Assembly: GCA_951406725.2 (NCBI GenBank)
Contig: OX597818.1
Location: forward strand, 49,476,001-49,540,000
DNA length: 64,000 bases
DNA from: Octopus vulgaris
Lineage: Eukaryota
Direction of reading: 5' to 3'
Position 1 is the first letter of the stretch, and each line of letters begins with the position of its first letter. The translations under genes were made by a program, and so were the position numbers. Positions 20,790 through 60,924 of the stretch are shown piece by piece. The notes under the pieces were generated by a model. That model searched no databases. It was not told the DNA's origin and saw only the letters and a program-made list of their open reading frames with translations.

Positions 20790-22528
20790 GTACATGCAAA
20801 CCATGTACAGGGATGCTGTCAGTAAGGTGAGGGTTGGTTGGTACAGTAAAGAATTCCAAGTAGGGGTAGGGGTCCACCAAGGATCAGTCCTCAACCCCTT
20901 CTTATTCATCATAAGTCCTCCAGGCAATAACAGAAGAATTCAAGACAGGATGCCCTTGGGAGCTTCTCTATGCTGATGACCTTGCTCTAATTGCTGAGTC
21001 ACTACCAGAACTAGAGGAAAAGTTTCAGGTGTGGAAGCAAGGATTATAATCAAAGGGCCTTCGGGTCAACCTAGCTAAAACCAAAGACTTAATAAGTAGG
21101 AAGGCAGACAAACAACAAATCCCTTCAGGTAGATGGCCCTGCTCAATCTGTACAAAAAGCATAGGGAGAAATTCCATAAGCTGTACCCAGTGTAAGCTAT
21201 GGACACATAGGAGATGCAGCAATATCAAAGGAAGGCTAATTGGGAAGATAGTTTTTGTATGTGGCAAATGCTCAGGAGCAATAAACACTGAAAATGTGCA
21301 GAGAACAACTTCTGTCACATTCCAGGGAGAAAAACTAGAAGTAGTTGATAGCTTCCGTTACCTAGGTGACGAAGTCAGTAGCTGGGGTGGATGCTCTGAA
21401 AGTGTAGTTGCTAGAATAAGAATTGCCTGGGCAAAGTTCAGAGAGTTCCTACTTCTGCTGGTGACAAAGGGTCTCTCGCTCAGAATAAAAGGTAGACTGT
21501 ATGATGCATGTGTACGAACAGCCATGCTACACAGCAGTGAAACATGGGCTGTGACTGCTGAGGATATGCATAAGCTTGCAAAGAATAAAGCCACTATTCT
21601 CCACTGGATGTGTAATGTCAGTATGCAGACATGACAGAGTGTAAGTACCTTGAGAGAAAAGTTGGACTTAAGAAGCATCAGATGTGGTGGGCAAGAGAGA
21701 CGACTGCACTGGTATGGTCATGTGTTGCAAATGGATGAGGACAGTTGTGGGAAAAAGTGTCACACCCTAGCAGTTGAGGAAACCTGTGGAAGAGGTAGAC
21801 CCAGGAAGACCTGGGATGAAGTGGTGAAGCACAACCTTTTTGAACATTGAGCCTCACCGAGGCAATGACTAGTGACTGAAACCTTTGGAGACATGCTGTG
21901 CTTGAGAAGACCCAACAAGCCAAGTGAGACCATAACTCGTGGCCTAAACCAGTGGTGTATAAGCAGCCCACTTATGAGTACCCTTCATTCATTGGATAAT
22001 AAACTTTGCTTGTGAAGACTTGAAGCAAATGAAATCAAAATCACTGATGTGGCTGATTAGAGTACCGCCTGATTGGCACTCACGCCAGTGAAACATTAAA
22101 AGCACCATCTGAGCATGATCATTGCCAGGGTCGCTGACTGGCTCCCATGCCAGTGGCATACGAAAAGCAACATCCGAGCATAATCGTTGCCAGTGTAGCC
22201 TTACTGGCTCCCATGCAGTTGGCACGTGAAAAACAGCATTCAAGCATGGCTGTTGCCAGTGCCACTGGACTGGCTCCTGTGCAGGTGGCATGTAAAGAAA
22301 CACCTTTTGAGTGTGGTTGTTGCCAGTACCGTCTGACTGGTCCTCATGCCAGTGGCACGTAAAAGCACCCACTACACTCTTGGAGTGGTTGGTGTTAGGA
22401 AGGGCATCCAGCTGTAGAAACATTGCCAGATCAGATTGGAGCCTGGTGCAGCCTTCAGGCTTGCCAGTCCTCAGTCAAATCGTCCAACCCATGCCAGCAT
22501 AGAAAGCAGACATTAAATGACGATGATG
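20790..22528 (+). mobile_element. 5'-truncated RTE-clade LINE (RT C-terminal half, Cys-rich insert, 3' UTR)
   Basis: GVHQGSVLNP, LLYADD (20965-20980), FRYLG and GRGRPRKTW motifs with frameshifts, (GAT)n tail. Confidence 0.93.
22062..22370 (+). repeat. ~65-bp diverged tandem repeat (about 5 units) in the RTE 3' UTR
   Basis: Units start near 22084, 22148, 22214, 22280 and 22347 (TGCCAGTGGCACGTAAAAGCAC-like). Confidence 0.85.
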
Positions 22529-26567: not shown

Positions 26568-26937
26568 TATCCCTCTCAAGCTTCAGTGATTCCATATTAC
26601 ATGAAAGTCAAAGAGAAAATACATTTTGTGCTCTGGAACTCCATGTTAACACAAGATTTTCATGAGTGCTATTGAGGGTGGGTGCCTTCACTACTGCTTA
26701 AGCCAAAATTGTTTCACAATATTCTTGAATTCTTGATATGTTTTTAATGCTATTGTGTAATCCCAGGTCAGCTTTAATAGAGCAGTCTTTTTGACATGCA
26801 AGTCGCTGGTGAGATGCAATGTATAGATTTGACTTCCTTGCTGCCCATCCAGTCTGTATCTGCATACTTGTTAAGGGTGCAACAGTTGCTGTTATGCTCA
26901 CTTCTGTTGGTGATGTGCTCCCTAGCACAATGCTTGA

Positions 26938-27590
26938 GACATATGAAGCTACTGGGCATTTGAGAGAATCTAAATCTCGTGAGATCTTAGTGTTTATTGT
27001 TCCTGCACATCTGTCACATACAAAGACAACTTTATCTGTTAATCTACCTGTGATTCCACTGCACCTTTTATGTGTCCATAGTTTACACAGGGTGCAGCGA
27101 ATGGAATTTCTTCCAACTCTTTTCCTACATATTGAGTAAGCCCATTTACCTGACAGAAAGAGTTTTATCTTCTTTCTTACTAACAACAACTTTAGTCTTT
27201 GCTAGGTTAACTTTAAGGCCCTTTGATTTTCGGATTTGGTTCTATACCTGAAATTTCTTCTCCAGTTCTGCTAAAGATTCTACAATAAGAACAAGGTCAT
27301 CAGCATATAGCAATTCCTCTGTTATGGCCTGGAGGACTACAATGAATAAGAGTGGGCTAGCCCTGGTGAACCCCTACCTGTATGCTAAATTCATCACTGT
27401 ATTCATGGCTAACAGCACCACTGTACATGGCTCATACAGCTCTAACAAGCCACTCCTTTATTCCTACCTTCCTTAGAGACCACTATATAACAGAGCAGGG
27501 AACTGTCGAAAATGTTCTCCAGGTTGACAAAGGCTAAGTACAATGGCTTACTTTTGGTCAAGTACTTTCCTGCCACTATCTCACTAGGAA
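26938..27590 (-). mobile_element. RTE RT fragment
   Basis: Homologous to 52540-53170. CRKRVGRNSIRCTLCKLWTHKRC in ORF 26698-27189. Confidence 0.88.
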
Positions 27591-35653: not shown

Positions 35654-36305
35654 ATTAACAATCAAGGAACGGCCATAATAGGCCATTCACCCACTAGAAA
35701 TAACAGCCAAAAGCTTTAACCGCAAAATAACGTCAATTCCCACTAGGCCGCTGGAGGCAAAAGAATTCTACAAAATTTTTTTTTGCCACCCTATATTGAT
35801 TAATTATGAATTTTCTGGTTAATTCCGTAATGGAATCGGCGGCTTATATTTATTTGCTGCCGATAAATTTGGCGCGAGTGCGACGATTTGAAAATTTTAG
35901 GTCAGATATTGACGAGGTAGCAATGAGAATGCCTCGTGAAAAATATCTGTTCCGGTTTGGCTATTTCTTACTGATGAATCTAAGGGCCTATGGTAGATTG
36001 GCTTGATTTAATTTAATCAGGTTAGTTTTCCATTAAACAGAAGATGAAACGGTGCATCGTCTAAGAAATTACAGGGTAAATGTTTTTCAATTTTCTCCTG
36101 GTTTACGGAATTGACGTTATTTTGCGGTTAAAGCTTTTGGCTGTTATTTCTAGTGGGTGAATGGCCTATTATGGCCGTTCCTTGATTGTTAATGTTGAAC
36201 TTAAAAATGGTTTATGACTATTTAATTTTTTCCCACTAGGCCGCTGGAGGCAAAAGAATTCTACAAAATTTTTTTTTTTTTTGCCACCCTATATTGATTA
36301 ATTAT
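35654..36305 (+). mobile_element. Retrozyme/Penelope-like non-coding element with direct terminal repeats and an inverted segment
   Basis: Direct repeats 35737-35807/36230-36305 (period 493), perfect 87-bp inverted repeat 35654-35740/36107-36193, (TA)n on both sides. Confidence 0.85.
35963..36069 (+). ncRNA. Type I hammerhead ribozyme, canonical core, long helix II insert
   Basis: ATTTCTTA-CTGATGA-ATCT...AGAT-GAA-ACGGTGCATCGT-C-TAAGAAAT. 8-bp helix I, predicted cut after GUC 36061. Confidence 0.82.
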
Positions 36306-52334: not shown

Positions 52335-54499
52335 CCAGGAGGGCACCATCCCCAATGACTGGTGTAGTACTATTATAGTTAGCTGCTACAAGGGTAAAGG
52401 TGATGTTAGATAGAAACAACTACAGAGGCATTATATTGCTAGACCAAACCATGAAAATTACTGAGAGGGTTATAGCTCGACTGATTAAAATAGAATTAAA
52501 TTAGATGAGATGCAGTTTGGTTCTGAACTTGGGAAAAGTACTACAGATGTCATCTCCCTAGTGAGACAGCTGCAGGAAAAGTACTTGGCCAAAAGTAAGA
52601 CATTGTACTTCGTTGACCTGGAAAAAGCTTCCGACAGAGTTCCCCACTCTGTTATATGGTGGTCTCTAAGGAAGTTAGGAGCAGAGGAATGGCTTGTTGG
52701 AGCTATACAAGTCATGTACAGTAGTGCTGTCAGTAACATGAGAGTTGGTCGTGAATAGTGATGAATTTAGCATACAGGTAGGGGTTCACAAGGGCTCAGT
52801 TCTCAGCCCACTCTTATTCATTATGGTCCTCCAGGTCACAACAGAGGAATTCACAACTGGGTGCCTGTGGGAACTGCTATATGCTGATGATCTTGCTCTC
52901 ATTGCAGAATCTTTAGCAGAACTGGAGAAGAAATTCCAGGTATGGAAACAAATCCTGGAATCAAAGGGCCTTAAAGTTAACCTGGCAAAGACCAAAGTTG
53001 TTGTTAGTAAGAAAGAAGATAAAACTCTCTTTCCGTCAGGTAAATCGCTCTGCTCAGTATGTAGGAAAGGAGTTGGAAGAAATAGTTGTCTTTGTATGTG
53101 ACAGATGTACAAGAACAATAATCACTAAGAGCATATGGGTTTTAGGTTCTCTCAAATGCCCAGGAGGCTCTCTTGAGGTTGTAGATAGTTTCTGTTACCT
53201 AGGTGACCAAATGAGCAACGGTGGGAAATGTTCTGAAAATATTGTTTCTAGAATAAGAATTGGATGGAAGTTCAGAGAGCTATTACTTCTGCTGGCAACA
53301 AAAGGACTCTCTCAGAGTGAAAGGTAGACTATATGATGCTTGTGTGTGAACAGCTATACTCCATGGTAGAAAGGTACGGGCTCTGAATGCAGAAGACTAG
53401 AGAGAAATGAAGGTAGTAGGCGCCATCAGTGCACATGTACAACAAAGTTCAAATGTATTGAGAGAAAAGTTGGGCATAAGAGGAATCAAATGTAGCCTGA
53501 TTTGGATATGTGATGCATTTGAATTAAGACAGCTGCATAAAGAAGTACCGATCACTGAAAGTATATGGCACCCACGAAAGTGGGAGACCCAGGAAGAAGT
53601 GTGTTGAAGTGGTAAGGACTGATCTCAGGATGTTGTGCCTTATGAATGAAATGACAATGGACCGAGATGTCTGGCGATATTAAGTTCTTGAGAAGACCCA
53701 CCCACGTCGGCGAAACTGAGTTCTAGAAGTGTTGTGTGTCCCACCCACACTTAAGAAAATTTCTTATACACACTATCATAACAAACCAAACTACCTCTCT
53801 TCTCTTCCTCACATTTCCACTTCAAGCACTAGGCTTGCCTCCCACTCCCCAATCCTGTCCTCTTGACCCTGTACCACTGTATCATTGCTCTCCACTAGCT
53901 TCCAACCTGTGTGTTCCACCCACGCCCTGTCTCACTGTTTCATTGCATATCCCCAGCACTTAGCCACCATCTCTATTCTGCTGTCTCCCACTCTCTCTCT
54001 CTCTCCTTCTCCTGCACTTCCCTCAGGTTGAGTAACCACATACTTCTTTTGTGGCAGAATACCTGTTTCTGTCTTCATTCCTCATCTCTCTCTCCAGCCA
54101 GGTAACCGTGTACCTCCTCTACAGCAAGACACCTGTTTCTGTATCTCTGTGTCACTATAACCTTTCATCATCTGACACAAGATCACCTCCTCCAATGCCC
54201 TTTCCCCTCTCAATCAAGTTTTTGTTTTTGTCATGAAAGTACTCGGTGACTTTGTCAGTGCAGATGCATTCAGCTGTAAAATCATTGCCAAAACTGACCT
54301 TGTCTGTGCTTGTGCCATGTAACAAGCACTAAGTCCACTCTGCTGAGTGGCTGATGTTAGGAAGTGCATCCAGTTGTAAAAATCCTGCCAAAACAGTTAC
54401 AGAAGTATGTTGCAGGCTTCTGCCTGGCTGGCGCTTGCCAAACCATCCCACCCATGTCAGCATGGAAGGCAGATGTTAAACGATCATGATGACGACGAC
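52335..54499 (+). mobile_element. 5'-truncated RTE LINE (RT domain, pyrimidine-rich 3' UTR, tail)
   Basis: NYRGI, MQFG, FVDLEKA, GVHKGSVLSPLLF and LLYADD motifs, frameshifted. Confidence 0.93.
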
Positions 54500-59365: not shown

Positions 59366-59426
<61 letters not shown>

Positions 59427-59460
59427 CGGTGACCAGTGAATAGATTTCACTGTAAATATA

Positions 59461-59602
59461 TATATTTGCGAAGGCTTGGCAGGTATCTCAACTAGCAGGA
59501 CTTGCTACTCTGGACTGATGATGGGCAAGACCTAGAAACATGCATGTCTTCAGGTTGCTAGTCCTAGCTGGTGGGGATGCTTGCCTCCCCTTCGCAAATA
59601 TA
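59461..59602 (+). ncRNA. Type I hammerhead ribozyme at the tip of a ~55-bp rod
   Basis: TCTGGA-CTGATGA-TGGG-CAAGA-CCTA-GAA-ACATGCATGT-C-TTCAGG. Helix I extends to TATATTTGCGAAGG/CCTTCGCAAATATA. Predicted cut after 59548. Confidence 0.88.
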
Positions 59603-60924
59603 AGGACGCAGGAAATGTGTCAAAGCCGACAGGAAGCATCGATGCTTCCTAGGGCTAAATAGTGGTGGTGTAATTCCCTTTATGGGACTGACACGTTATG
59701 TTGACAGTATACAACCACTATATATATATATGAGGAAAACTGAAATCTCATATAACAAATTAAAAAACTTTTTTGAGAAGTTTGCTTCCCAACCACATGG
59801 TTCTGGATTCAGCCTGAGTGGCATCTTGGCCAAATGTCTTCTACTATAACCCCCAGACTGACAAAAACTTTGTGAGAGGATTTGGTAGATGGAAACTGAA
59901 GGAAGATTATCTTGAAACCACATGGTCGGGTGACCAAACAAGTTAACCACACAGCTATGTCTGCCCCATATATTAAAAGATTAAAGGAAAATGCTATAAA
60001 AGCATCAATACAGAATCACAACCAATTGACAATTTACAATTTAGATGTCTGAAAATTGCATGTGGTTGGTTTCCCTTTGCAGCGCTGTGGCATCACTGAT
60101 TGGAGCTGACCCAATTCATCTAAAACGATTGCTGACGCAAGTGCTACTAAGTTACAGTACATCAGCTCACTAGTAATAGATTTTCGTGCTAGCGCAGAAA
60201 ACGGACGTTAAACGATGATGAATCCATGAGGTACTTACCATTCAATCAGCTATAGAATATATACCAACTAAATTTGAATTTATAGAATAAATCCTCCCAT
60301 AAAGCTGACATCTAACATACTCTTTTGTAGTACCCACGAAAGAAATTTCATAGTCATCATAGCACTACAAAAAAAAAATGTCCCTACAGAGCAGTAAATA
60401 TTATCATTTCTTTTGTTAGTAAATTCAACAATAATAGCTCTCTTCTCTCAGAAATGAGACAACCATATTTCACAAACATCTTTAACCTTTATCAACATGA
60501 ATAATTTATATAGAGCAATGTGTGGGTCAACTATTAAACGTATTTATAAATATACCAATGAAAGACCTATTTAAAGCTTCCCAATTCTATACACAATCAA
60601 AATAATAAACCAGTTCAACTTCAGGCATGAAGAAGGAGTTAACGATTGAAGAGGGAAAGAGAATTAAAGTATTAGTTTCTGGCTCTTATATAATTGAGAT
60701 AAGTAAATCAATAAATAAAAACATACAAATGTGCATACACATACGTGTACACACACACAGTGACGTATTATTTTACATGACACAAAACAAATTTATCATC
60801 AAGACTAGGGGGCATGTACAGCAACTGTTGTATATTAACTCAAGCAATTAAACTCATCCTAAGAGAGCCTCTTCATAAGCTATATTCAGCTGAGACAAAG
60901 ATAAAAATGTGTGTGTAATATATA

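Follow-up and report, generated by a model that had tools for sequence, protein, structure and literature searches.

A 297-nt stretch of the Octopus vulgaris genome is one monomer, truncated at its 5' side, of a non-coding 355-nt repeat that is dispersed in hundreds of copies or more. It is probably best explained as a truncated copy of a non-autonomous hammerhead retrozyme, with an RNA that is likely circular and with the reverse transcriptase-endonuclease of a Penelope-like element (PLE) as the likely agent of insertion. It lies in the window, the 64,000-nt stretch of DNA that was analysed (assembly GCA_951406725.2, contig OX597818.1, positions 49,476,001 to 49,540,000, forward strand), and belongs to subfamily A of the repeat, in which its nearest relatives are 94-96% identical. 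The earlier note on this DNA had described an element of ~300 nt. A natural tandem copy (L049) gives a unit of 355 nt, of which the window copy is only a part, without the final ~55-58 nt (the tail); the retrozyme size class proposed in the same note holds for the 355-nt unit. GC content of the unit is 43-45%, and it contains no ORF of more than 50 codons, the longest ATG frame being under 50 codons. The parts of the window copy are listed in Table 1.

Table 1 Parts of the window copy and its flanks, in window coordinates
Feature	Position	Strand	Remarks
(AT)23 microsatellite	59378..59423		left part of likely insertion target
5'-truncated monomer, subfamily A	59424..59719	+	3' end is the fixed site A
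Predicted 5' hairpin of unit	59424..59458	+	recurs in circular folds of natural units
Helix I, 5' arm	59461..59514	+	conserved UAC bulge 59506-08; proximal 6 bp 59509-14
Hammerhead core CUGAUGA (C3-A9)	59515..59521	+	majority state in subfamilies A, B and D
Helix II	59522..59534	+	UGGG 59522-25, loop CAAGA 59526-30, CCUA 59531-34; variable base position, then three pairs (G-C in the family; the first is G.U in the window copy)
GAA 59535-37, palindromic helix III 59538-47 and GUC 59546-48	59535..59548	+	
Perfect 10-nt palindrome ACAUGCAUGU	59538-47	+	helix III
Predicted cut	between 59548 and 59549	+	after GUC
Helix I, 3' arm	59549..59602	+	closes in 14-bp base
Perfect 14-bp base of helix I	59461-74/59589-602	+	
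3' domain, predicted hairpins up to AC-rich site A	59603..59719	+	likely reverse-transcription start
(AT)n run	59720..59731		right part of likely insertion target

The hammerhead sits where the earlier note had placed it, with CUGAUGA, helix II, GAA, the palindrome and GUC all present; the palindrome and the 14-bp base of helix I are both perfect, as claimed. Helix I had been put at about 55 bp. Its arms are indeed 54 nt long, but in the hammerhead-constrained fold they form only 47 predicted pairs, 5 of which are G-U. The stretch folds with a z-score of -8.7, and none of 200 shuffles was equally stable. Structure is favoured on the plus strand, as had been proposed: the minus strand of the window copy folds 26 kcal/mol worse than the plus strand, which is also the more stable one in 70 of 72 family copies. 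The core CUGANGA, GAAA and NUH of a type I hammerhead are present around three helices, with helix I open-ended, and the conserved motif is predicted to self-cleave its RNA.

The description "textbook" did not survive closer inspection. Helix II varies at its base and is mismatched there, the first position reading C.A, U-A, U.U or C.U across 87 copies, so that no conserved G10.1-C11.1 pair is seen in the usual register. The second pair is G-C in 81 of the 87 copies and G.U (59533) in the window copy, which stands alone in this respect among 62 unselected copies. With these base states of helix II and the G.U at 59533, the window copy is less textbook than its own family. Subfamilies A, B, D and E all keep a proximal helix I of 6 bp, the UAC bulge and an A at the end of loop 2, possible elements of a loop 1-loop 2 tertiary contact that may resemble the schistosome motif. 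A helix II starting with U.U occurs in active natural motifs according to PMC3088659. The Rfam search suggested in the earlier note gave no hammerhead match, either for the window copy at the gathering score and down to E 10 or for four other copies down to E 1; an Rfam match is a detection aid, not a defining trait of the type I hammerhead. A loose core pattern has 17 matches in the window against 6.9 expected and carries no significance by itself there, since 4 of 100 shuffles scored as high.

The window copy is probably an ordinary, inactive insertion and a dead end, because it has one ribozyme only and a weakened helix II, and we find it somewhat doubtful that it is catalytically active. 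A very high-copy short repeat lies directly to its right (about 59746-59933). The element is found ~40 kb upstream of the start codon of a small GTPase gene, presumably ARF6-like to judge from its peptide sequence, with minus-strand exons at window positions 19549-19470, about 11372, 5573-5350 and about 3240. Elsewhere in the window, an 87-nt perfect inverted repeat (35654-35740 and 36107-36193, with 366 nt between the arms) is possibly a young MITE, and three fragments (21050-21634, 26698-27201 and 52742-53327) are taken by us to resemble LINE reverse transcriptase.

A family search in the 2.8-Gb genome gave 2195 candidates, of which 40 were scored, with full-length matches 90-100% identical. 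Four related subfamilies, A, B, D and E, keep the core and, through compensatory changes, the six proximal pairs of helix I. Exact matches to the core motif number 211 for A and B against 0 for the reversed control, 281 against 1 for D and 704 against 0 for E; D and E were found with core-containing patterns, from which the share of core-less relatives is not readable. Family D (L139-L168) is colinear with A at 67-80% and has a 6-nt helix III palindrome, ACUAGU; only the 7 positions of its CUGAUGA are unselected, giving a naive p of about 0.06 at 68% background identity. Family E (L216-L240; L079:27) is a 365-nt relative with an extended type I hammerhead, colinear with A over 264 of 401 aligned positions (66%; score 284 against a shuffled maximum of 178). 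Its core reads UUGAUAA, in which the pair C3-G8 has become U3-A8, a covariation that occurs naturally and is active in vitro (PMC3088659, PMC4209133). In 22 of 23 family E copies helix III is palindromic (ACAUGU or ACUAGU), and UAC precedes helix I in 18 of the 23. The expectation that other copies would conserve the core was thus borne out, with CUGAUGA as the majority state in A, B and D and UUGAUAA in E. One more subfamily was suspected, but its 20-nt motif gave 0 matches in the genome. At two neighbouring loci (L126 and L127), element copies 2047 nt apart are arranged in the same way, which probably reflects a local duplication or a repeat of the assembly.

Between A and B, compared in 31 plus 31 copies chosen by overall similarity, six pairs of helix I have changed on both sides, one of them as a transversion pair, and none of these double changes is in the core. 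Over 72 rows, 94.2% of cells are paired against 30-44% for slid controls, and there are 198 double-change cells, which count inherited events, against 80 in shuffles. Covarying pairs number 12 against 9.2 in shuffles, which is not clearly above control, as 36 of 500 shuffles were as high. In helix II, G-C is replaced by A-U in 7 of the 72 rows and in most of D. Helix III is palindromic at three different sequences across the subfamilies. Sustained selection on catalysis has very probably acted on the family, to judge from the covariation in the core, from the bulge and loop residues that are conserved and from the retained palindrome.

These comparisons bear on whether the hammerhead motif could be accidental and the repeat a DNA-level hairpin or MITE-like element. 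The inverted arms of such a repeat can homogenise by template switching, and one copy (L038) does show arm-to-arm copying at the DNA level, which is able to mimic compensation; the lack of an Rfam match would also fit. However, the double change from C3-G8 to U3-A8 affects core positions that are unpaired, the stability bias towards the plus strand is nearly uniform, and the copies are truncated at the 5' side with fixed 3' ends and have no terminal inverted repeats at their true ends. We consider this explanation extremely improbable.

In all of the 88 copies folded, the core is buried in the minimum-energy structure of the monomer; for the window copy, the hammerhead fold lies 3.8 kcal/mol above that structure. 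When two copies are folded together, the minimum-energy structure is a double hammerhead in 35 of the 88 (15/31 for A, 17/23 for B, 3/14 for D and 0/20 for E; 32/54 for A and B together), including the window copy. These models, which ignore tertiary contacts, weakly suggest a switch that would be off as a monomer and on as a dimer. The conserved palindrome is a stronger sign of such a switch than the cofolds, and its retention across subfamilies agrees with the earlier proposal that a palindromic helix III suits dimeric folding. The search for tandem copies proposed in the earlier note was successful in part: for A and B, direct tandem pairs were found 6 times and arrays of three or more copies not at all. 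Pairs 350-365 nt apart are also listed for D and E.

How the element reached its positions can be read from the insertion anatomy of 116 element loci, which is its most informative feature and does not appear in the earlier note. Among 82 non-inverted pieces, 53 end at site A, which is AC-rich, and 23 at site B, ~55 nt further 3', with 6 ending elsewhere. The 5' ends are variable and scattered along the unit, without a pile-up at the cut site. Copies cross the cut site and the unit boundary, reaching two units or more; 32 pieces are longer than a single unit, and what they add on the 5' side is the 3' end of the unit itself. Of 60 motif hits for site A ends, 2 of them due to chance, 27 continue into (TA)n or (CT)n, against a background of 6%. 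Two tail hairpins recur with changed sequence when the tails of A and D are folded. No LTR organisation was seen in the 116 loci, and no joint revealed an empty insertion site. At one locus, ~1.7 kb between two element pieces (L137:2345-4003) overlaps with a frame of 187 codons that closes in a CCHC knuckle and is probably another retroelement.

Head-to-head junctions occur 45 times in the 116 loci. In 16 of these one end is unassigned (one, L130, may be B-B), leaving 29 that can be scored; 28 combine one A end with one B end and the remaining one is A-A (p 6e-10 against independence). In published descriptions, PLE insertions are partial tandems in which the 5' copy is inverted and one end bears the tail, and they favour (TA)n (PMC8557442, PMC3846280). 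An anole PLE starts its cDNA in vitro at two internal sites in a stem-loop that is AC-rich, and its tail is the sequence between the two start sites (PMC11167929), from which we take the start-site role of site A. The fixed double 3' ends, variable 5' ends, inversions and (TA)n targets of the octopus repeat match this anatomy, which makes mobilisation by a PLE highly likely.

Intact PLEs with reverse transcriptase and GIY-YIG are present in the genome. A GIY-YIG search gave 148 matches among the 150 scored of 6136 candidates, and 16 of the 148 listed matches sit in an open frame of 781 aa. The encoded protein combines RVT_1 (just under the cut-off) with GIY-YIG and a CX4CxxC linker, as in Neptune and Nematis. 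Neptune-type copies (L091-L096, L098; e.g. L094:1039-3384:+) form a young family with intact ORFs, an upstream ORF and a repeated 3' UTR with CCAAT- and CRE-like words, and end in (TA)n at two 3' sites ~38 nt apart. Of 80 PLE loci, 28 contain a minimal hammerhead motif (controls: 0), in most cases with the U3-A8 core and ACAUGU palindrome also seen in family E. An older PLE family (L176, L177, L180, L183, L191, L194) carries a U3-A8 minimal hammerhead-like motif near its 3' end, in the 3' UTR. The chance that the partner of the octopus element is a Neptune-type PLE seems to us about even.

Since insertion anatomy is common to the repeat and PLEs, the unit might instead be the pseudo-LTR (pLTR), at the 3' end, of an autonomous PLE that the search has missed, its copies being 5'-truncated stumps. 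Frog retrozymes are reported to resemble PLE pLTRs (bioRxiv 10.64898/2026.07.22.740005), only a small share of the GIY-YIG candidates was scored, and similarity to PLE proteins flanks 7 of the 116 element loci. Against this, long copies extend 5' into the unit itself and never into a shared ORF, and the sole shared 5' flanks, at three loci, are another repeat. An ORF with reverse transcriptase and GIY-YIG joined to the repeat was not found in the 116 element loci and 80 PLE loci. Extended similarity between the unit and the PLE families sampled was also absent, with only AT-run matches in the 30 and 10 PLE loci compared. The hammerheads of animal PLEs are usually minimal (PMC4209133), as are the PLE ones found here, whereas that of the unit has the 6-bp helix I with its conserved bulge. 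The one copy directly behind a PLE ORF (L112) is nested in the 3' UTR of the PLE, and the unit is absent from all 38 further copies of the two neighbouring PLE families. A pLTR origin therefore appears improbable.

Three further candidate links between unit and PLEs were rejected. A likeness of their 3' ends was equalled in 93 of 1000 shuffles, the PLE neighbour of another copy (L012) gave no pLTR link, and the PLE fragment beside one family E copy (L224) looks like a nested insertion.

For the non-autonomous retrozyme that we favour, the proposed life cycle would begin with read-through transcription of a rare tandem copy. The transcript is predicted to be cleaved at GUC, best as a strand-swapped double hammerhead joined via the palindrome; a lone monomer would tend to bury its core. 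It is plausible that the long helix I holds the cleavage products together, as the earlier note had suggested. A cut monomer starts with the 3' arm of helix I and ends just past the 5' arm and the core, so that helix I would pair the first and last ~50 nt of the released unit-length monomer, clamping both ends close together for ligation by a host ligase. RtcB has been reported to ligate such monomers in vitro (PMC7229834). The PLE protein would then cut AT-rich DNA and start cDNA at two internal sites ~55 nt apart, as the insertion anatomy suggests. The resulting DNA copies stop at variable 5' points, pass the cut site and run up to two units or more, often as head-to-head pairs with one end per start site.

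A linear tandem transcript accounts for copies of more than one unit no worse than a circle does; we lean slightly towards a circular RNA as the template. A PLE-mobilised element could also be copied from linear, uncleaved tandem or read-through transcripts, with circles not serving as template and the ribozyme having a weak or protein-assisted role. The copies that cross the cut site, with 5' ends spread and not piled up there, would agree with such a route, as would the hidden core of every monomer fold. In the anole PLE, insertion in vitro was unaffected by ribozyme mutants, cleavage thus being dispensable, and the hammerhead needed protein to cut (PMC11167929); among frog retrozyme dimers, 8 of 9 are reported without cleavage (bioRxiv 10.64898/2026.07.22.740005). 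However, copies of two units or more exist, and no long array was found that might have supplied them; the core covariation, conserved bulge and loop residues and palindrome point to selection on catalysis. We regard linear templates as an unlikely explanation. Assembled contigs of putative RNA runs cover the element and carry no strand, end or level information. A 3' bias of their coverage was considered as a sign of cleavage and rejected, the same bias being present in three much larger runs of unknown kind.

A more specific scheme, possible if on the unlikely side, combines the two halves of this cycle: a dimeric enzyme of Neptune type would copy a ribozyme-made circle into cDNA in a rolling-circle mode, its two active sites starting at fixed points 55 nt apart, one per strand of the cut target. 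If so, two-ended priming would have left its record in the genome as the rule of one A and one B end, and the palindrome would act as a switch, with single circles staying uncut and dimers able to cut.

The earlier note had also spoken of a viroid-like rod. Helix I is rod-like, as described, but whole units are not: the circular folds of four natural full units are branched, with 8 hairpin loops and 67-69% pairing. The octopus unit has in common with hammerhead viroids and viroid-like satellite RNAs its size range, strong self-pairing, a ribozyme predicted to be blocked in the monomer and the option of a double hammerhead. These likenesses, which follow the discussion in PMC7229834, could suggest that the copies are those of a replicating viroid-like RNA, endogenised by reverse transcription into the germ line. 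The octopus unit differs in being genome-encoded, retrotransposed, branched instead of rod-like and, as far as seen, of one polarity, no minus-strand ribozyme having been found in the window copy. The divergence of its four subfamilies and their fixed PLE-type ends speak for a long stay in the genome, and the genomic anatomy argues for retrotransposition instead of RNA-to-RNA replication. We judge a viroid-like origin very improbable.

By its testable features, the retrozyme family described here is likely a new superfamily of metazoan non-LTR retrozymes (for comparison see PMC7229834, PMC7761336 and PMC6155905), and likely a PLE-mobilised one. With the coral, mussel and axolotl families of PMC7229834 it shares a non-coding unit of 150-450 nt (350-390 nt in mussel) that carries a type I hammerhead, a GC content under 50% and a palindromic helix III. 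According to the same source, the axolotl HHR_Amex2 is also mismatched at the base of helix II, and some mussel circles likewise have a core predicted to be blocked in the monomer. In contrast to coral retrozymes, for which dimers to 62-mers are given there, octopus copies are nearly all dispersed, range from less than a unit to two units and form no arrays that we found. Family E differs by its U3-A8 core. We found no published description of such a family in the literature; repeat libraries or supplements may hold it under another name. The words hammerhead, ribozyme and retrozyme are absent from the main text of one octopus repeat-annotation paper (PMC13282606).

The vertebrate non-LTR retrozymes of Li, Clavereau and Pollet (2026; bioRxiv 10.64898/2026.07.22.740005) have in common with the octopus family a unit near 350 nt, families rich in monomers and the co-occurrence of endonuclease-positive PLEs. 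These authors already argue that retrozymes derive from and depend on PLEs; their link is drawn from pLTR similarity and co-occurrence, and local tandem amplification is proposed. In octopus no pLTR similarity was found and the link is made by insertion anatomy, which would mean that each octopus copy was retrotransposed. Compared with the endonuclease-positive Neptune and Nematis PLEs (PMC8557442, PMC3846280, PMC11167929, PMC4209133), the family agrees in its partial tandems, truncated 5' ends, head-to-head inverted copies, tail at only one end and (TA)n targets, as well as in a type I hammerhead with palindromic helix III; U3-A8 and ACAUGU are common to the resident PLE and family E. The octopus unit differs from these PLEs in having no ORF, a tail of about 55 nt against 30-40, an extended and not a minimal hammerhead, and no extended sequence common to any PLE examined.

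As the source of the enzyme that moves animal retrozymes, PLEs have been proposed from co-occurrence and pLTR similarity (PMC7229834, bioRxiv 10.64898/2026.07.22.740005). As far as PMC7229834 goes, PLEs are only proposed as the partner there, whereas the octopus family shows a PLE-type tail and inversion signature, and this PLE footprint is unusually clean. The subfamilies also offer a natural series of hammerhead variants missed by Rfam, with three palindromes, C3-G8 against U3-A8 and four states of the helix II base. Because the PLE signature lies on a short unit without an ORF, in a genome with intact Neptune-type ORFs, both the identity of the partner and the origin of PLE inversions would be testable in vitro with a 355-nt template.
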